From contig CP060223.1 of assembly GCA_023898465.1 (NCBI GenBank), positions 640,001 through 704,000 on the forward strand: a DNA stretch of 64,000 nt, given 5' to 3'. Below the pieces are notes generated by a model that worked only from the letters and a program-made list of their open reading frames with translations, was not told the origin of the DNA and did no database searches. This DNA comes from Candidatus Nomurabacteria bacterium (lineage in GTDB: Bacteria; Patescibacteriota; Patescibacteriia; HK-STAS-PATE-3). The position numbers and the translations under genes were made by a program. This document shows positions 21,474-40,108 of the stretch, piece by piece; within the stretch, counting starts at the first letter, position 1; every line of letters starts with the position of its first letter.

Positions 21474-22163
21474 TTATTTTAGCACTTCTTGTACAGTCTT
21501 CCAGACTTGCTCAGCAATATGTTCGCGATCCTGCATCACGCCATTTTTGGTACACGTTATCACCTTCCAGGAAAAACGTGCTGATAAGCGATGCGCCATT
21601 TCCCAACTCGTCTGCTGATGACGTTTATTCTTTTCCAGACTATCGACAGCCTTTCCGCCCAGGTAATTACGATGACCTTTTGCTCGTACGAGCTTACGTC
21701 CTATGGTATGCGGCACGGAGAGAAAAACAGTCAGATCAGGCTTGAGCACTCCAAGTATGTGATACTCCATTTCTTCTAACCAATGGAGATACTCCTTCTG
21801 CTCCAAAGCTGTTTGAAACTTGGCCGCCTGATGCATCATGCTTGAGGAAGTATAGCGATTACAGACAACTACTTTCCCTTGCGCTAACCATTTATTCAAC
21901 TGATCCTTTGCCTGCCAACGATCAAGTGCATACAAGAGTGAGGCAAGATAAGGATTCACTTTTAGTGTCGGTCCAAATTTGCCCTGAATGAATTGACCGA
22001 CCATGGCCCCAAAGAAACTTTCATCATAACGAGGAAAATCAGCTAAGGCAGTCTGATACCCCTGCTTTTTTAGACGCTGAATAAGGAGACCAGCTTGCGT
22101 TGCCTTGCCAGATCCATCCACCCCGTCGAGTACGATCAGTTTTCCGCTTTGCTTCTTTTTCAC
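21474..22163 (-). CDS. tmk: Thymidylate kinase.
   Basis: GKLIVLDGVDGSGKATQ P-loop and DRY motif. Confidence 0.85.
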   Translation of the reverse strand: MKKKQSGKLIVLDGVDGSGKATQAGLLIQRLKKQGYQTALADFPRYDESFFGAMVGQFIQGKFGPTLKVNPYLASLLYALDRWQAKDQLNKWLAQGKVVVCNRYTSSSMMHQAAKFQTALEQKEYLHWLEEMEYHILGVLKPDLTVFLSVPHTIGRKLVRAKGHRNYLGGKAVDSLEKNKRHQQTSWEMAHRLSARFSWKVITCTKNGVMQDREHIAEQVWKTVQEVLK

Positions 22164-22223
22164 AGGCCAAGTTTAGCATACGCAAGAGCCAAATTCCAAG
22201 TTTTTTATCCAATGATGCATCAC

Positions 22224-22252
22224 TTGAAAAAAGCTGTAAAAACACCTACAAT
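22224..22252 (+). promoter_or_regulatory. Sigma70-like promoter (TTGAAA, 17-nt spacer, TACAAT) in the divergent tmk/thyX intergenic region.
   Basis: Direct hexamer match. The ATG at 22271 follows about 12 nt after the predicted start site. Confidence 0.45.
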
Positions 22253-22270
22253 CCCCATGCTTTTCCGCTA

Positions 22271-23974
22271 ATGATTCCACCCATGCCTACATTCACACCC
22301 GAAGAAATCGAAGTGCTCAAAAAGTATATCACCGACCCCACGGGTGATGTTTTTTGTATTAAAAACATGCCTGGTCTGGTTGGAGCAGCCTATGCCCGCT
22401 ACAGCCGTGCCCGTGGCGGATTTCGAGAAGTACTACTCAAAGAATTTATTAGCGAAGGGGTGGTAGACGCCGAGCATGCGGAAGATCTTATCGAGCGTGT
22501 CTTAATTGCCTATGGCGATGATTCAGTTGGCGAATTAGAAGGCGCTCACATCTCTTTTGAAAATATCTCCATACTTGCCACGAAAGAAATTGAAGAATGT
22601 CGCATTGGTGGCTCCCCCATCGAGCAATCCACTCGTTATGTTTTCTACGACCAAAAAGATGCGCAGGGAAAATATAAATACATTGTCCCGCCTGAACTAG
22701 AAGGAAGCGATTTAGCAAATGAATATACCGAGGCCATGGACTTCCTCTTTGACACCTACTGCCGCCTCATCGAACCCATGAAGGAATTTTATAAGAAGCG
22801 ATTGCCCCTGAAGCAAGCTGAATATGATGTGCTAGGAAATGGCAATAAGCAGCACTATGAAGAGCTGGAAAATGAAAAAGACCAAAAAGCCTTTAAGACA
22901 ACTTATAACATGGATATTCGCACAAAGGCCTGCGACACTTTGCGCTATATCCTCCCACTAGCAACGACCACCAACGTCGGTATTTTTGGCAATGGCCGAT
23001 TCCATCAAAGCATGATCTCTGCTCTACTCTCCAGTCATTTTCGAGAAACCCAAAGGCTGGGCGATGCGGCTTTGCGAGAGCTGAGTAAAATAATTCCGGT
23101 CTATGTGCGGCGCGCCAAGCGAGATGAATATCGCACCACGATTGAACATGACATGGAACGCTTAGTAAGCGACTTACTCGCCAATGTGGAGGCAGAAACC
23201 CCGACTGAAGAAATACACCTTATGGACGAAGGCGAGGCGTATATTGCGAAACATTTGAACGGCCAAAGCGACCCTGCGGCGCTTCGTCAAGCTATAGCCC
23301 GATATCGTGATACTTCCCTCCTGGCCCACATCCTCTATGCCTACGCCCAGCATCCTTTGTCACAGCTAATGGATTTTGTTGAGCAACTTTCAGAAGAAAA
23401 ACGTAAAGAGATTATTGATACCTACATTGGTCAGCGCCGCACCCGTCGTGACCGCCCTTATCGTGCTTTTGAAAGCGGCTACCCCTACACCTTTGACCTG
23501 GTTACCGACTTTGGCAGCTACAAAGATCTCATGCGCCATCGCATGACCACGCAGCTACGTCAGCGCTTCTCGCCTGAGCTGGGCTTTGCCATGCCGCAAG
23601 ATATTATTGAGGCAGGCTTCAGCGAAGAGATTCAGGCTTGTCATGAGCGCTCACAAGAACTTTATCGCAAGCTAGCCAAGCAACTTCCTCAGATTGCTCA
23701 ATATGCTGCCCTGCACGGCTCTAAAGTGCGCTGGGTGATTGGGATGAACGAACGAGAGGCCTATCACCTACTTGAACTCCGCACCACTCCACAGGGCCAT
23801 CCTGCCTATCGTAAAGTCGGCCAGGAGATGCACAAACGTATTCAGGAGCGTTCAGCTTGGCGCGCCGCCCGTATGAGCTTTGTTGACCACAACAGCTACA
23901 CCTCTGCTCGCGGCGACTCAGAGGCAAAGCAGCGAGTCAAAGAACGCAAATACGAAGAAACGCACGGCGCCTAA
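22271..23974 (+). CDS. thyX: ThyX-like flavin-dependent thymidylate synthase, unusually long (about 567 aa, possibly a duplicated domain).
   Basis: RHR...S-type motif (MRHRMTTQLRQRFS) in the C-terminal half and a ThyX-like N-terminal half. The ORF-track start at 22100 would overlap the tmk start, so the in-frame ATG at 22271 is taken instead. Confidence 0.5.
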   Translation: MIPPMPTFTPEEIEVLKKYITDPTGDVFCIKNMPGLVGAAYARYSRARGGFREVLLKEFISEGVVDAEHAEDLIERVLIAYGDDSVGELEGAHISFENISILATKEIEECRIGGSPIEQSTRYVFYDQKDAQGKYKYIVPPELEGSDLANEYTEAMDFLFDTYCRLIEPMKEFYKKRLPLKQAEYDVLGNGNKQHYEELENEKDQKAFKTTYNMDIRTKACDTLRYILPLATTTNVGIFGNGRFHQSMISALLSSHFRETQRLGDAALRELSKIIPVYVRRAKRDEYRTTIEHDMERLVSDLLANVEAETPTEEIHLMDEGEAYIAKHLNGQSDPAALRQAIARYRDTSLLAHILYAYAQHPLSQLMDFVEQLSEEKRKEIIDTYIGQRRTRRDRPYRAFESGYPYTFDLVTDFGSYKDLMRHRMTTQLRQRFSPELGFAMPQDIIEAGFSEEIQACHERSQELYRKLAKQLPQIAQYAALHGSKVRWVIGMNEREAYHLLELRTTPQGHPAYRKVGQEMHKRIQERSAWRAARMSFVDHNSYTSARGDSEAKQRVKERKYEETHGA

Positions 23975-24075
23975 CTAAAAGCGCTGAACCGAGCAAAGGC
24001 TTGCCCTTCAAGAAAAGAACTGCTAGGGTGGTTTTGTTCTTTCCGGTGTTGTGGATGAAGTCTGGCGAAGTCTTA

Positions 24076-24110
24076 GGACTCGCTGGATATACGTAGAGTC
24101 CCTTTTTCCC
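24076..24110 (+). terminator. Candidate thyX terminator.
   Basis: GGACTC-14 nt-GAGTCC followed by CTTTTTCC. Confidence 0.35.
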
Positions 24111-24302
24111 TCTCATTCGGGGTATCTCGTATCCGAGCTTAGGATCTGTCCGATGGACTAGGGAAATACCCTCCTTACGCGGGACAGCGCGGTTTCCTGA
24201 TGTGAGCCCATTGTCTGATTGTCTCCCCCACTCTCACAAGGTCGGAGAGGAGCGATCACGCAAGTAACTCACAAGATCGGCACACCAGGCCCTCGGCATT
24301 CA

Positions 24303-24338
24303 CAACAAACCACCCCTTGCTCTGTCCAAGCAGGGGGT
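24303..24338. terminator. Bidirectional terminator hairpin at the 3' end of the kinase gene and of the 370-bp non-coding gap.
   Basis: CACCCCTTGCT-ctgtcca-AGCAGGGGGTG (one G.U pair), followed by TTTTC on the plus strand and U-rich sequence on the minus strand. Confidence 0.45.
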
Positions 24339-24343
24339 GTTTT

Positions 24344-24943
24344 CTATCCTTCGAGCTTCTTCAACACTGTATCAACTTTTTGATAAAGCTCATCCTGCCC
24401 TCCATTATTCTCAATCCGATAATCTGCCATTGCAACACAGCGATGAATGTTCTGTTTATGCGGATCATCGCTTCGCATCTCCCGCTCCTCCTCAGCTACA
24501 AACTCCGCAAAGGTGACGTTATCGGTATCAGTTAATCCCCGCTTATACAAGCGCTCATAACGCAGCTTTTGATCAGCATCTAAAGCAATAACCACGCCGC
24601 CCATTTTTTGCACTGCCTCCACTTCAGCTGGCACGCGGATGCTCTCCACAATCACCCGGTCAGATTCAGCTAAACCCCTTCGGGCCATAGTGGCGATAAC
24701 ATAGTCAGGACCAAACTGCCGCCGCAAATCATTTCCTACCTGCACCAACATATCACGGTTTTCTGCTAAGCCGCGCTTTTGAATTTCGGCGCGAATAAAT
24801 TCACGTGCTGAGTAATGTTGATACCCTTTTTGAATGAGATACTCCGAAACAGCACCTTTACCAGCTGCCAGCGTGCCGGTCAAACCAATGAGTTTTGGAG
24901 CCGGTTTAGGGATTTCTGCCGGACGAGTTGAGATGCATACCAT
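24344..24943 (-). CDS. P-loop (deoxy)nucleoside monophosphate kinase, dNMP-kinase-like or adenylate-kinase superfamily.
   Basis: GLTGTLAAGKG P-loop and a small size of about 200 aa. It sits between thyX and dut, inside the dTTP-pathway cluster. Confidence 0.45.
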   Translation of the reverse strand: MVCISTRPAEIPKPAPKLIGLTGTLAAGKGAVSEYLIQKGYQHYSAREFIRAEIQKRGLAENRDMLVQVGNDLRRQFGPDYVIATMARRGLAESDRVIVESIRVPAEVEAVQKMGGVVIALDADQKLRYERLYKRGLTDTDNVTFAEFVAEEEREMRSDDPHKQNIHRCVAMADYRIENNGGQDELYQKVDTVLKKLEG

Positions 24944-24945
24944 AC

Positions 24946-25554
24946 TTAATCGGTATTATGGTCAACCAGGCAGAATGGGGGGTTGCCTCCACTTCGCTCA
25001 AAATAGAGTGGCGCAGTACCGCTATCCCCTTCGGCATACTCTAAGCTCTTTTCAATACGACAGTGCATTAAATATGACTGCACGTTATTCACATCTCGCT
25101 CAGATTGCTGCACCACATAGCGGCAATTATATGGCGTGTCTTGTACCTCTTGGCCAAGCGGATCAAAAAAGCCCGTGATGTTGATGTAGTCTGGATAGAG
25201 AATATCGAGGAAACCGTCTGAGGCAGAATTCTCAAACTTCAGGTTTGGATAATTGCCAGTGCAACTGCCATCCAGCTGTGTGTAACCATAGTGGAAGTGA
25301 AAATAGTTGTTCCCGGCTGGAAAGGTATAGGTTGCACCGCCCACTCCGAGTCTTTGACCCGGATAACGCTGATTGTCGTCATAGTACAAAACTAAAGCAT
25401 CAGCAAAATCATTGAGCCAAGATACCCGCTCAGTATCCCTGGTCTTGGCCCGAACCGTTTCGTAATTAAGTGCAATGACAATACTCGAGAGGATGCCAAT
25501 AATAGCGATAACAATGAGGAGCTCAATTAAGGTAAATCCAGAAGTGTTTTTCAT
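24946..25554 (-). CDS. Type IV pilin or pseudopilin.
   Basis: Class III signal MKNTSGFTLIELLIVIAIIGIL (prepilin cleavage/methylation motif) followed by a beta-rich globular domain. Confidence 0.7.
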   Translation of the reverse strand: MKNTSGFTLIELLIVIAIIGILSSIVIALNYETVRAKTRDTERVSWLNDFADALVLYYDDNQRYPGQRLGVGGATYTFPAGNNYFHFHYGYTQLDGSCTGNYPNLKFENSASDGFLDILYPDYINITGFFDPLGQEVQDTPYNCRYVVQQSERDVNNVQSYLMHCRIEKSLEYAEGDSGTAPLYFERSGGNPPFCLVDHNTD

Positions 25555-25609
25555 ACGCTAAAGTACACTCAGTATATCATGAGTTACTCTACTTGTAAGA
25601 AAGGCCAGG

Positions 25610-26038
25610 TTAACTACGACCAGTGCTTCCGAAACCACCCTCACCACGGGCGGTAGCTGAGAGCTCGGCTGCTTCCTCAATTTCTACATGACCGGACTGG
25701 AATATGAGGAACTGCGCGATACGCTCACCCTTTTCTACAGTGTAATCCTCACCACTAGTATTCAGCAGCATCACTTTAATTTCACCGCGATAGCCAGGAT
25801 CAATCATGCCGCCAAGGATGGTAATGCCGTGCTTGAATGCCAATCCAGAACGATCCCAGACAAGACCGACATGACCTAAGGGAATTTCAAAAGCCAGCCC
25901 GGTGCCAAAACCGCGCGCTTGTCCAGCAGGAATCACACCTGCCTCGGTTGTGCAGAGATCAATCGCCGCATCTTCTTCACCATGTGCATACTCTGGTAAC
26001 TTCGCATCCTCGTGCAGTTTCTGAACTCGTACTTTCAT
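25610..26038 (-). CDS. dut: dUTP diphosphatase.
   Basis: GLVWDRSGLA...GGMIDPGYRGEI dUTPase motifs. Confidence 0.9.
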   Translation of the reverse strand: MKVRVQKLHEDAKLPEYAHGEEDAAIDLCTTEAGVIPAGQARGFGTGLAFEIPLGHVGLVWDRSGLAFKHGITILGGMIDPGYRGEIKVMLLNTSGEDYTVEKGERIAQFLIFQSGHVEIEEAAELSATARGEGGFGSTGRS

Positions 26039-26039
26039 A

Positions 26040-26516
26040 TTATTTTTCCTCTTTAGCTAATTGACTACGATACTGTCTATATTTCACTCCAGCAGCATCA
26101 AGTATGCGGCGAGAAGCAACCCAAACCGGCCGGTCGTGATTGCGATCGCTCTCAAATACCACTTCCTTAATTCCTGTTTGCACTATTGTTTTAGCGCATT
26201 CATTGCATGGGAAAAGTAAGCAGTAGAGAATTCCACCCTTGGTGCTCTGATTTGCGTTGTAGATAGCGTTCTCCTCAGCGTGGACCACATAGGTATTTTT
26301 CACGTTGAGAAAATCACCTTCGCTATCCCAAGGGAAATCGTGCTCAGTCCCCCGCGGCCAGCCATTATAGCCCATACCGACGATGACGTTGTCTTGATTT
26401 ACAATCACCGCTCCGGTCTGGGTAGACGGATCCTTGGAGCGCTGGCTAATCACATGCGCCATCTGCATCAGGCATTCGTCCCAGGAAAGATAGTTTTCTC
26501 GTGGAGGACGCGCCAT
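26040..26516 (-). CDS. dCMP deaminase (ComEB-type).
   Basis: HAEENAI and PCNECAK zinc-binding motifs. Confidence 0.8.
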   Translation of the reverse strand: MARPPRENYLSWDECLMQMAHVISQRSKDPSTQTGAVIVNQDNVIVGMGYNGWPRGTEHDFPWDSEGDFLNVKNTYVVHAEENAIYNANQSTKGGILYCLLFPCNECAKTIVQTGIKEVVFESDRNHDRPVWVASRRILDAAGVKYRQYRSQLAKEEK

Positions 26517-35887: not shown

Positions 35888-36266
35888 GCGGCTTTTGTTC
35901 ACGGGCCAGAGCAAAGAATTCAATCAAAGAAAGGAGGATGAGATAGGCAGCCAGGTTCCACCAACGCAGGAATTCAGACACCTGCATAATGAGCGCGCCG
36001 CTCACCAGGAGACTGAAGAGCGTGCCCTGGCGAAAAGAAATCGCCACCTGCCGGTAGGCCACTGGTTCGCGCACAAAGCGCATCCGCAGACCAAAACCCA
36101 GCAAGGAGAAGCTGCCAATCAAGGCAAAAAACAAGGTTAAAAAAAACGCGGCATGCCCGATGAAGCCCGACACCTCCGGATCAATCGAGAAAAGGACCAG
36201 CGCCCAGAGCGCCCAACTCAGCACCGTGGCCACAGTCATAAGGAGCAGGTAACGTCGAATGCTCAC
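35865..36266 (-). CDS. Small four-TM membrane protein of unknown function (GTG start, no SD).
   Basis: Hydrophobic profile only. It overlaps the pheS 5' end by about 20 nt. Confidence 0.35.
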   Translation of the reverse strand: MSIRRYLLLMTVATVLSWALWALVLFSIDPEVSGFIGHAAFFLTLFFALIGSFSLLGFGLRMRFVREPVAYRQVAISFRQGTLFSLLVSGALIMQVSEFLRWWNLAAYLILLSLIEFFALAREQKPHDGIRTQ

Positions 36267-36491
36267 AAGGCAAAAATTCGGGAGTAATTAGCTAAAACAG
36301 CAGCCTGATTGTACCAGAAATCAGGTGCTGGGGCAAGATAGGATATTTAATTACTTTTTGTTTGGATAACGGGAAAAAAGGAAAATGAATGAATGTTCGT
36401 CGATCAAAATATCTTAGCACTCTTTCTTCAATCCATTCATTTATACCTAATATTTATTTTAGACACATATTATTGACCATACTTAACTCTT

Positions 36492-38819
36492 TCAGTCTTT
36501 CGTCGCATCATTGATAATTTGATAGTGATTTGGTGCGATTTTTTCCATCATCTCAAATAATTCATTCACAATCTTTTTTGTCTCTGGGACGAGCGCTGGA
36601 TTAAAACCGGATCCAGTAATATGTGATTGATCATTTGTAAATTTGTATATGGCGTCTAACTTTTGTTCATCATACCCATTTTGTTTTAACTCCTCTATCT
36701 TTTTATATGATTTTTTTCCATTTGGAACACTGAACATTAAAAACGTATCCCAAACCTTCCTTGCTATATTAGGAATAGGATATGCCTTGGCGATAGAATC
36801 ATCTTGTTCATCGCGAAGATATTTAAGTAATTTAAAGAGATAGTGGTATTCACTTTCATATTCACAAAGCTCTTTATCCATTCTATCAATGTAGGCACAA
36901 CGAATGTTCGAGGGAAAATAATTTTTTATCATAAAGTACCCGGTATTATCTCTCCCGGCACCCCTCCGCCAATTGATCAAAAGTTTCAAGAAATCAAAAC
37001 TATGAGTAAAAATAAACACTTGCCCGCCGTCTTTTACTGCACCCTTCAAAAAACTAAAGGCTTGATAAAGAGAATTTGAATCGAGGCTAGATACAGGATC
37101 GTCAATGAGGATGATTCCATTTTGAAGATCAAAACTCTGATCTTCAAGATGCACCACAAAATATATAAAGGCAATAGCGGTCTTTTCACCTTCGCTTAAA
37201 TATTTTGCAGCAGAGTCATCGCGCATGATATTGTACCCCGAAACAACCTCTTTTTCATCACCATTCTCGCTAATAACCGTTTCGATGCGCGGAACAAATT
37301 TTAGCTCTCTGTGCCCCAAATAAGTTGCTATTTTTTCATTGATGACTTCACAGGCCTTATGTTTCGATGAGATTTTCGCTGTATTTTCTTCAATTCTTTT
37401 ATTTATCTCCTCAATTTCTTTTGTTAATGTGTCTATGTTTTTTGTTAGATTAGAAATATCTGATTCTATTTTTTTTATATCGTCAAAAATTGTACTCAGA
37501 TAGTGGAATTTTATTTTTTCCGCAGCCCTCTGTTTAACGGTATCAAAATCCGCAGTTCGTTTTTTGTGTTCATCAATAATGGCATTTACGCTATCAACAA
37601 CTTTATATAGACCGATACTGCTCAATTTTTTATCATGCTCTACCCTTTCGGTCGTCTTACTTTTCTTACTTTTAATTTTATCCGCAAGATTTGTAATATC
37701 GTTGACAAATTGTTGTTTAGCTAGTTCAAAATTAACTTTTTCTGTCTCTAGGTTTGTTTGTAGGTCTTTATAGAATCTCGTTTTCTCGGGAATTGTTATA
37801 TTTTGAATAACGGAGTAAAGCTTCCTTAATTTTTCAACAAGACTATCCAGGTCTTCTTTTAATTTTTTGTCTGCATTATTAAAATAAAGTGCCAATTGCT
37901 CTACTCTATCATTTGGAATATTTTGTAAACAGTATTCGCAAACATCTGAAGAATGTCTTTTGTGTAATTTTACCCCCTCTTCTACCCATTCTGAAATATC
38001 ATTATTTTCTGCAAGTCGATTAATAATCTCGGACTCAACTTTTTTGTTTAATACGTTTTCTGCCTCGGTATTAATGGAATTTACAATTTCAGAAATTTCG
38101 TAATTGTTTTGATCTATTTCGACTTTCGGAATAAATATTCTATCCAAAAATGGTAGAGATTCCTGCTTTAAAGAGATTAATATATTATTGAGCTCTACTT
38201 CTTCTAGCTCCACCTTCCTATTAATTTTAGAAAAATCACTTTCTGCCTGCGGCCTACGATAATCTCTTAATGCATTTCCTCCGATCGCAGCTCCTATGGT
38301 TTTTGCAATTTCGGTGAATTGACCATCGCGACTTGCTTTAAGCCGCTTATGGTCTTTTTTATAATCTGCCAATCTTGCAATTTTTCCTCTTTGCTTCGGA
38401 TCAGATGAATCGCCGTTGAGTAAAGTTCTATCTTTTTTAATTTGAACAGCGAGATCTTTATTTTCTTCACCGAGTAAAATTGAAATTGAATTTGCACGGC
38501 CTTCTATAAGCTCAATATTTCTTTCTATATAGTCTCTGTTGAAAACTCTGACTTTTGGAGGGAATGTGTCGTTTTGATCGTACCTATTTCCATTCTCGTC
38601 TTCAATTTCATACTCCAGATTTTCAATACTCACCCCGCTTAAAGCATCAAATAAACGGGAGAGTGTTGTTTTGCCGCTTCCATTCCAACCATACACTAAA
38701 TTAAGTTGCTTGAAATTTGGCAAGGTTGATCTAGATCGTATTCCTGAACCCCAGACATAATTAGAAAAAACAAGTCCGAGATTTTTTATTTTATTGATTC
38801 TTTGGATAGCATTACCCAT
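36492..38819 (-). CDS. PrrC/RloC-like (AAA_13) Rad50-type ATPase with a coiled-coil CxxC zinc hook; candidate anticodon nuclease or abortive-infection defence protein.
   Basis: N-terminus NLGLVFSNYVWGS...LNLVYGWNGSGKTTLSRLF (Walker A). A 500-aa coiled-coil insert carries CEYC. The C-terminal head has the signature LSEGEK, Walker B IILIDDP, D-loop SSLD, H-loop FTHS and a roughly 150-aa C-terminal domain. The gene sits in a 25-30% GC island. Confidence 0.65.
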   Translation of the reverse strand: MGNAIQRINKIKNLGLVFSNYVWGSGIRSRSTLPNFKQLNLVYGWNGSGKTTLSRLFDALSGVSIENLEYEIEDENGNRYDQNDTFPPKVRVFNRDYIERNIELIEGRANSISILLGEENKDLAVQIKKDRTLLNGDSSDPKQRGKIARLADYKKDHKRLKASRDGQFTEIAKTIGAAIGGNALRDYRRPQAESDFSKINRKVELEEVELNNILISLKQESLPFLDRIFIPKVEIDQNNYEISEIVNSINTEAENVLNKKVESEIINRLAENNDISEWVEEGVKLHKRHSSDVCEYCLQNIPNDRVEQLALYFNNADKKLKEDLDSLVEKLRKLYSVIQNITIPEKTRFYKDLQTNLETEKVNFELAKQQFVNDITNLADKIKSKKSKTTERVEHDKKLSSIGLYKVVDSVNAIIDEHKKRTADFDTVKQRAAEKIKFHYLSTIFDDIKKIESDISNLTKNIDTLTKEIEEINKRIEENTAKISSKHKACEVINEKIATYLGHRELKFVPRIETVISENGDEKEVVSGYNIMRDDSAAKYLSEGEKTAIAFIYFVVHLEDQSFDLQNGIILIDDPVSSLDSNSLYQAFSFLKGAVKDGGQVFIFTHSFDFLKLLINWRRGAGRDNTGYFMIKNYFPSNIRCAYIDRMDKELCEYESEYHYLFKLLKYLRDEQDDSIAKAYPIPNIARKVWDTFLMFSVPNGKKSYKKIEELKQNGYDEQKLDAIYKFTNDQSHITGSGFNPALVPETKKIVNELFEMMEKIAPNHYQIINDATKD

Positions 38820-38919
38820 GACGGTAAAAAATTATATTATTGGCAAGTTCACCCCCACCATAAATCACATAGTAACCGATTACACCTTACACCCCTCCTT
38901 AACCTCTTACACCATTCAT

Positions 38920-38937
38920 CTCAAGAAAATATTAAGA
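38920..38937 (+). repeat. Copy 1 of the 18-bp tandem half-site motif (cTCAAGA-AAAT-ATTAAGA).
   Basis: Located 101-118 nt upstream of the RloC-like start. Confidence 0.6.
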
Positions 38938-39021
38938 CCACCCTCCCCTGCCAATAGCAAAAGCGGGTAGCCAACGGCACCCGCTCATTACTCCCTCCAT
39001 AGGGTATTTCACCAGAAACAG

Positions 39022-39039
39022 ATTAAGAAAATATTAAGA
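39022..39039 (+). repeat. Copy 2 of the motif (ATTAAGA-AAAT-ATTAAGA, perfect tandem half-sites).
   Basis: Located 3 nt beyond the stop of the 39042-39590 gene and 102 bp from copy 1. Confidence 0.6.
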
Positions 39040-39041
39040 GG

Positions 39042-39590
39042 CTAAATTGCCTGATAGGTATTTACAATCTGAGTTGCCTCTTGAAGCATATTATCAGCTC
39101 CCTGGCTCCTCGCCGGGATCGTCCATAGCAACATAGCATCACCACTTACCATGTAGTAATGATCAAAACCACCGTCAAAGCTATAATACGCAGTGCTTCC
39201 GTTTGAGAGTGTTATCGCCTGCCAAGTATCCGCTATTTCAGTGTTCGAGCTGATAGTCAGAGATAGTGCTGGCACTTCGCTTGCCTGCTCTGTAGATGTA
39301 GGGGTCGGTACGTTCTTTTCAGTATTCACTGACCAACCCTGAGGGTAACGCACTGAGAAATGATACTCGGGATTTTCTACTACCTTCCAAGCAGAAATAT
39401 CTACATTGCCTGACGACGGTGGTAATACTGACTGAGTGAAATTTTGTTGCACCGCCATGGATGACTCTAGTTCGTTAACCTGAGCACTTAACTCTTGCGC
39501 ATCATTTCGAGCAAGGCTATACATCCACGCTAAACTCACCGTGATAACAACAAGGACAATAAAGGCTATATTCTGGAATTTCTTGGACAT
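39042..39590 (-). CDS. Membrane-anchored secreted protein of unknown function.
   Basis: N-terminal TM anchor and an extracytoplasmic domain. The gene is flanked by inverted copies of the 18-bp motif. Confidence 0.5.
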   Translation of the reverse strand: MSKKFQNIAFIVLVVITVSLAWMYSLARNDAQELSAQVNELESSMAVQQNFTQSVLPPSSGNVDISAWKVVENPEYHFSVRYPQGWSVNTEKNVPTPTSTEQASEVPALSLTISSNTEIADTWQAITLSNGSTAYYSFDGGFDHYYMVSGDAMLLWTIPARSQGADNMLQEATQIVNTYQAI

Positions 39591-39656
39591 AGTTGTCTCC
39601 TGCTAATTAATAACAGGGCTATCTTAGCCCAGTAATATCTAATAAGCAAGTCCTAT

Positions 39657-39674
39657 TCTTAATATTTTCTTTAA
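39657..39674 (-). repeat. Copy 3 of the motif in inverted orientation (TTAAAGA-AAAT-ATTAAGA on the minus strand).
   Basis: Lies in the divergent intergenic region between 39590 (-) and 39755 (+). Confidence 0.6.
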
Positions 39675-39754
39675 CTACCATATGTAAATTGTCCCTGGGT
39701 GATAACCAGCCTGATTATCACATCTGTGAAGTTCTTTGAAGAAAAGGAAGCAAA

Positions 39755-40108
39755 ATGAGGTATCTTCTCTTCCTGATTGTCGCACTGGTGGCGCTTTCAG
39801 TTGCTAGCCCCGGAGTGAGCCTTGCGACGGACACAACGGTGGAGTACTCCTTCTACGGTCCGTCCGGAGACTACAAGATCGAACTCTTCGAGGTGGGGGC
39901 ACCCTATCCATCTCGACAAGACTACGTCTACGGCTATAGTGGCACTTTCACGTATCGCCGTACTTGGTCATCGATCGTCGCCTACCGATCCTACTTCATC
40001 CGCATCACTGACCTTAACTCGGGAGTCGCAAAGCAGACTGGATCCGTCTACGTTACCTACAATGGTGGGTACTATGCGTGGTCGACCTGCTACTGGAGCT
40101 CAATGTAA
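39755..40108 (+). CDS. Small secreted Tyr/Ser/Thr-rich protein with a signal peptide (117 aa).
   Basis: Sec signal peptide MRYLLFLIVALVALSVASPGVSLA. A strong terminator follows at 40135-40172. Confidence 0.5.
   Translation: MRYLLFLIVALVALSVASPGVSLATDTTVEYSFYGPSGDYKIELFEVGAPYPSRQDYVYGYSGTFTYRRTWSSIVAYRSYFIRITDLNSGVAKQTGSVYVTYNGGYYAWSTCYWSSM

Follow-up and report, generated by a model that had tools for sequence, protein, structure and literature searches.

The DNA analysed here, called the window, is a stretch of 64,000 nucleotides (nt) from a Candidatus Nomurabacteria genome (GenBank assembly GCA_023898465.1, contig CP060223.1, positions 640,001 to 704,000) that contains a double-length thyX gene. 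The gene (22283-23974 of the window, + strand) encodes 563 amino acids (aa), in which Pfam Thy1 matches two stretches. Judging from sequence comparisons, its product is probably a functional flavin-dependent thymidylate synthase, built of two tandem ThyX domains with complementary halves of the active site and encoded within a conserved cluster for deoxythymidine monophosphate (dTMP) synthesis. The first in-frame ATG lies at 22271 (567 aa) and the second at 22283 (563 aa). The second is the start used in the homologues and in the NCBI record, and the window protein is 100% identical to the 563-aa NCBI entry 'FAD-dependent thymidylate synthase [Candidatus Nomurabacteria bacterium]' (FAD, flavin adenine dinucleotide). 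Residue numbers given below count from the ATG at 22271.

The chain is divided into an N-terminal ThyX domain (aa 5-300, 22283-23170, + strand), which carries the substrate-side residues S45, S85, R111, E118, S120, R122, Y123 and R225, and a C-terminal ThyX domain (aa 301-567, 23171-23971, + strand), which carries the flavin-side residues R422, H423, R424, N493, R495, H499, R504 and H510. Against Pfam Thy1 (PF02511, gathering score 24.8) the whole protein scores 132.7 bits. The N half alone (aa 1-283) scores 78.6 bits over aa 57-277, and the C half alone (aa 284-567) 58.4 bits over aa ~366-526. An earlier reading of the letters alone, hereafter the sequence-only reading, had described both halves as ThyX-like and named a match confined to one half as grounds for dropping this description; each half clears the gathering score on its own. 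Direct BLASTP between the halves, or against Thermotoga maritima ThyX, gave no significant match, which for the two halves implies that the duplication is ancient. Profile comparison with hhalign was too shallow with the first 120 close homologues (effective number of sequences, Neff, ~2-3) and became informative with 125 diverse members. With the latter, the match between the C half and T. maritima ThyX is full-length (probability 93.9%, E 1.6e-7), and that between the N and C halves spans 196 columns (E 1e-4).

The protein also has the ThyX fold. In the AlphaFold (AF2) model of the whole chain, which reaches a mean predicted local distance difference test score (pLDDT) of 91.6 and a predicted template modelling score (pTM) of 0.90, the same order of helices and strands occurs twice along the chain. 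The pTM indicates that the two halves, as modelled, pack in a defined manner. The low pLDDT at aa 81-90 and aa 111-130 falls on loops whose flexibility in T. maritima ThyX is established, the active-site loop 86-97 among them (PMC11940539). No double-length ThyX chain was present in the copy of the PDB that was searched.

The catalytic residues are distributed between the two domains. Their conservation was tabulated over 125 long-form sequences sharing <60% mutual identity, with T. maritima ThyX, its sequence checked against PDB 1KQ4, as the numbering reference. In the N half, the active-site loop R111-Y123 (RIGGSPIEQSTRY, 22601-22639, + strand), identified from the translation and the hhalign register, corresponds to T. 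maritima R80...E86-x-S88-x-R90-Y91. R111 (R80), S120 (S88) and R122 (R90) are found in 125/125 members, as is S85 (T55), while E118 (E86) and Y123 (Y91) are found in 123/125 and R225 (R147) in 124/125. S45 aligns with the folate-loop Ser30 and is invariant in the alignment of close homologues. The same half has lost other ThyX residues: the R78 position is D, R or W, H79 is variable, R174 is replaced by L or M, and H178 by P, D or E. The C half keeps what the N half lacks. R422, H423 and R424 are present in 125/125, 121/125 and 124/125 members, N493, R495 and H499 in 117/125, 123/125 and 100/125, R504 (R174) in 124/125 and H510 (H178) in 123/125. In its translated sequence the RHR motif is followed by a loop without the canonical S-x-R-Y (RHRMTTQLRQRFS, 23534-23572, + strand), with R or W in place of S88, L or F in place of Y91, and a variable residue at the R90 position. 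The C half also has Q for R147.

The sequence-only reading had rightly placed the RHR motif in the second half, where it occupies aa 422-424. The canonical RHRx7S motif it pointed to is nevertheless complete in neither half, and RHRx7S(x)RY becomes whole only when the two halves are combined. The N half reads E-C-R111-x8-S120-T-R122-Y123 and the C half R422-H423-R424 followed by MTTQLRQRF. Of the FAD-binding residues (RHR, N163, R165 and H178 in T. maritima numbering), near-invariant equivalents are R422, H423, R424, N493, R495 and H510, and the set is largely gone from the N half among the 125 members. The set for binding of deoxyuridine monophosphate (dUMP) and for catalysis, namely E86, S88, R90, Y91, R147 and R174, is supplied by the halves jointly: the N half contributes E118, S120, R122, Y123 and R225, and the C half R504. 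Conservation is the same on both sides, with a mean pairwise identity of 39% in the N half and 38% in the C half, and 19 and 17 near-invariant columns, respectively. Across 149 representatives reaching down to 30% identity, almost every full-length member shows SxRY early and RHR late, and most of the exceptions are fragments. The protein therefore has the make-up of a tandem subfamily: two Thy1 domains in a chain of ~520-600 aa, with S-x-R-Y in the first and RHR in the second.

Canonical ThyX sites are themselves composite. In the Mycobacterium tuberculosis and Helicobacter pylori enzymes, subunit A contributes RHR and R199 to a given site, subunit B S71 and R190, and subunit C S105, R107 and Y108 (PMC6514825). 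M. tuberculosis R199 is equivalent to T. maritima R174, and S105, R107 and Y108 to S88, R90 and Y91. In T. maritima ThyX, the substitutions S88A, R90A and Y91A impair the enzyme, and R174 activates dUMP (PMC8316439). As the C half of the long ThyX keeps the subunit-A set and the N half the subunit-C set, one domain of each kind could together complete a site. We propose that the two ThyX domains came to lie in one chain by an ancient internal duplication, after which each copy lost the part of the active site that the other retained. The N domain would have become the substrate side, with the folate-loop S45, S85, the E118-x-S120-T-R122-Y123 loop and R225, and the C domain the flavin side, with R422-H423-R424, N493, R495, H499, R504 and H510. 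The reciprocal site would have neither residue set. Each site also needs a third domain, which requires the association of two or more chains. The simplest model that we infer from the sequences is a dimer of tandem chains that would imitate the tetramer, as a pseudo-tetramer with two composite catalytic sites and two bound FAD where the canonical enzyme has four.

Several observations weigh against this assignment. The long ThyX scores 44.1 bits with the ThyX equivalog model NCBIfam TIGR02170 and so misses its cut-off of 87.9 bits; the model, with 211 positions, is as long as one ThyX domain. The subunit-B residues are divided between the halves, the S71 equivalent being invariant only in the N half (S85) and the equivalent of M. 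tuberculosis R190 conserved across the family only in the C half (R495), so that the assignment of subunit roles is incomplete. Moreover, the loops of the supposedly dead site are well conserved (D419 in 125/125 members, Q431 in 113/125, R or W at 430), which simple decay does not explain. This conservation is the basis of two other proposals. All four sites of the pseudo-tetramer might be active, the second type using the non-canonical residues R111 of the N half (125/125) and D419, Q428, R/W430 and Q431 of the C half. We consider this very improbable, as such a site would miss the equivalents of R78, H79, R174, S88, R90 and Y91 together, and no ThyX is known to work without those residues. 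Alternatively, in an obligate dimer of tandem chains with two catalytic sites, the pseudo-sites built from the same residues could have acquired a new function in binding a ligand of their own, for instance nicotinamide adenine dinucleotide phosphate (NADPH), another reductant or a regulatory nucleotide. Although unlikely, this arrangement would physically separate steps that are sequential in the one pocket of canonical ThyX. The sequence-only reading had suggested an internal duplication, or a pseudo-dimer with only one catalytic half; that half would be the RHR-bearing C half, the N half being a degenerate scaffold. RHR, R504 and H510 are indeed confined to the C half, which is also the better aligner to T. 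maritima ThyX. However, the C half is devoid of S88, R90 and Y91, which T. maritima ThyX needs for catalysis and which the N half keeps, and the N half is just as conserved. The internal duplication and the pseudo-dimer of that reading hold; a single catalytic half is very unlikely, with the residue set split and neither half complete.

Two further alternatives concern the existence of the gene and the identity of its product. The long open reading frame (ORF) could be an assembly or frameshift artefact that merges two adjacent thyX genes, the outcome that the sequence-only reading had reserved as a ground for rejection. In its favour, the metagenomic contig L081 has both halves as separate ORFs that overlap at TAATG. 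In this part of the contig (207-2391) the two ORFs, of 310 aa and 248 aa, are followed by a dihydrofolate reductase gene, and the hexamer ATGAAT is repeated at their junction; the split is either natural or the result of an 8-nt indel error. Against an artefact stand the identical protein in NCBI, 1,676 scored homologues of 540-590 aa, and relatives of the long ThyX in 468 species-representative genomes. An exhaustive search of 1.84 billion cluster representatives (clusters at 50% identity) returned 3,235 clusters at E<=1e-3, of which 480 also pass E<=1e-30; these 480 are mostly of 500-600 aa, as are most of the best 150 clusters, whose identity goes down to 30%. With same-length homologues by the hundreds to thousands, a frameshift fusion is hardly conceivable. 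In the 80 related loci that were kept for comparison of gene order (L001-L080), the long ThyX is a single reading frame in every case (80/80). Instead of making dTMP, the product could also be an enzyme of ThyX fold that acts on another substrate, for example a methylase of uridine monophosphate (UMP) or of another nucleotide, as PolB is. This is improbable in our judgment, and the genomic surroundings bear on it. The usual order in the 80 loci is L1-dcd-kinase-dut-thyX-tmk-gatB on one strand (dcd, dCMP deaminase). The tmk gene adjoins the long thyX in 63/80 loci, dut is present in 52/80, dcd in 28/80, and the kinase gene in 28/80, usually between dcd and dut. Finally, natural fusions join Tmk (P0140, P0212, P0261, P0162 and P0190) or dUTPase (P0189) to the N terminus of the long ThyX, each with two Thy1 stretches. 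On the strength of these comparisons, synteny and fusions support synthesis of dTMP from dUMP over other ThyX-fold activities such as that of PolB.

The long ThyX is thus a genuine member of a very large family of double-length flavin-dependent thymidylate synthases. Named long-form members come from many Patescibacteria lineages and from Acidimicrobiia, Microthrixaceae and Methylomirabilota. Two phages also have long relatives. The thymidylate synthase genes of Tunturiibacter phage Tunturi_5 (PP885688.1, 46606-47943) and of Microcystis phage Ma-LMM01 (NC_008562.1, 15792-17003) each align over 81% of the two-domain protein. The description of this ThyX as unusually long is accurate relative to the textbook enzyme and does not apply to the lineage, where double length is the norm. 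The window thyX is an ordinary gene for its lineage, of an architecture that is under-described.

In the window, tmk (-), thyX (+), a small kinase gene (-), a pilin gene (-), dut (-) and the dCMP deaminase gene (-) follow one another as the sequence-only reading had placed them, and the ORFs agree with the Pfam and NCBIfam matches. The tmk gene (dTMP kinase, 229 aa, GTG start; 21474-22163, - strand) scores 80.6 bits with Pfam Thymidylate_kin and matches NCBIfam dTMP kinase models. Downstream of thyX lies a gene for a small P-loop nucleotide kinase of the UPF0200/AdkA-like type (199 aa; 24344-24943, - strand; Pfam AAA_18/AAA_17). This kinase matches PDB 3lw7 and 3h0k with E~5e-9, and scores 75 bits with NCBIfam PRK08356, below the cut-off of the model. 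Its similarity is to archaeal UPF0200/AdkA-like proteins (PDB 3h0k, 3lw7). It is followed by a type IV pilin-like gene with an N-methylation motif (202 aa; 24946-25554, - strand; Pfam N_methyl, NCBIfam TIGR02532), by dut (dUTP diphosphatase, 142 aa; 25610-26038, - strand; Pfam dUTPase, NCBIfam NF001862 136 bits, cut-off 103) and by the deoxycytidine monophosphate (dCMP) deaminase gene (158 aa; 26040-26516, - strand; Pfam dCMP_cyt_deam_1, 83 bits). In the proposed pathway, dCMP deaminase and Dut would supply dUMP, and Tmk would take dTMP to deoxythymidine diphosphate (dTDP).

The pilin gene does interrupt the cluster, as had been noticed, and is missing from the same position in the closest relative, L001. 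It is not the sole interruption, since a 370-nt non-coding spacer lies 3' of thyX. Another small pilin-like gene (Pfam T4SS_pilin) is located between the deaminase and dUTPase genes in L082 (GCA_001303185.1, 1314-1715). The kinase and deaminase genes are neighbours in most relatives. Both proteins match the two parts of anti-phage dCTP deaminase models (PADLOC dCTPase, NCBIfam NF041025), at the domain level only, with NF041025 scores far under its cut-off of 400. An anti-phage role for the pair was considered and rejected, the PADLOC and NCBIfam antiphage-deaminase matches being limited to domains and the cluster being conserved and of housekeeping type.

The divergent orientation of tmk and thyX is real in the window and exceptional among relatives, most of which have the two genes co-directional. 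When the window is compared with the 80 loci, thyX is inverted in place only in the window, L001 and L005, and the order of kinase and dut is swapped there. Because thyX is inverted in this Nomurabacteria genome, it has its own promoter region. The distance from tmk to the first thyX ATG is 107 bp, as had been reported together with a clean promoter. A sigma-70-like match, TTGAAA-17-TACAAT, is present upstream of thyX (22224-22252, + strand) and agrees with the consensus at 10/12 positions. It is best regarded as a consensus match only, for the region holds 7 promoter-like sites when 6.5 are expected from shuffles, that is, no excess. L001 and L005, the two closest relatives in which thyX is likewise inverted, do not share the short spacer; the comparison was of the distance between tmk and thyX, which is ~750-850 bp in them.

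The 370-nt spacer between the convergent thyX and kinase genes (23975-24343) ends in a strong hairpin followed by a T-run at 24311-24339. Its + strand folds better than shuffled sequences (z -3.0), and a search against Rfam gave no match even at E<=1. A block of ~40 nt, at about 24016-24057 (CTGCTAGGGT...TGTTCTTTCC), is conserved in the equivalent spacer of L001 and was not found in the other 79 loci. The spacer may be a structured 3' untranslated region or a small RNA. Elsewhere in the window, a low-GC island lies beside pheS at 36000-40000 (GC content 0.37-0.41, compared with ~0.48 in the rest of the window). It encodes a 775-aa AAA_13 ATPase (36492-38819, - strand) and a protein of 182 aa that matches no Pfam family (39042-39590, - strand), and looks like a horizontally acquired insertion of defence type.

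ThyX is an antibacterial target, and to our knowledge all structural and mechanistic work on it has dealt with single-domain homotetramers. A very large share of environmental bacteria, much of Patescibacteria and Acidimicrobiia among them, use a fused two-domain ThyX. In the literature searched we found no description of a tandem or duplicated ThyX architecture or of a complementary split of its residues, although one may exist elsewhere. If the dimer indeed has two composite sites, it would be a natural "half-of-sites" ThyX and would show cleanly how an internal duplication can be followed by subfunctionalisation. Mutagenesis of a single site would then also be possible in an enzyme that normally has four identical ones. 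For annotation, a one-domain RHRx7S motif or the TIGR02170 cut-off misses or mis-scores the long-form enzymes.

Among characterized enzymes, the ThyX of Chlamydia trachomatis (CT632) is ~529 aa long, roughly double length, and was reportedly shown by Griffin et al. in J Biol Chem in 2005 to be an active flavin-dependent synthase. It may belong to the same tandem family. Cluster look-ups made for a Chlamydia member gave named matches only from Daviesbacteria, Woesebacteria and Acidimicrobiia. The chlamydial ThyX is so divergent that early phylogenies omitted it (PMC6171736), and the C. trachomatis enzyme has been purified and assayed (PMC3498832).

Canonical ThyX, or flavin-dependent thymidylate synthase (FDTS), as represented by T. 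maritima TM0449 (PDB 1O26) and M. tuberculosis Rv2754c (PDB 2AF6/3GWC), belongs to the same Pfam family as the window protein, has the catalytic residues that both halves of the latter hold in combination, and acts in the same pathway context. It is a homotetramer of ~220-250 aa subunits with four identical sites, each subunit bearing RHRx7SxRY, R147, R174 and H178, whereas the window protein has two fused domains, each with only a complementary subset. PolB (PDB 4P5A), which methylates UMP/dUMP in polyoxin biosynthesis, has a single domain and belongs to secondary metabolism; unlike it, the window thyX sits with dut, dcd and tmk, beside ribosomal protein genes and gatB. The closest counterparts are the long-form 'FAD-dependent thymidylate synthase' proteins of Patescibacteria, Acidimicrobiia, Microthrixaceae and Methylomirabilota, which share the length, the Thy1 stretches and the SxRY/RHR split. 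Nothing essential distinguishes the window thyX from them, apart from the inversion of the gene with respect to the order that is usual in the operon.

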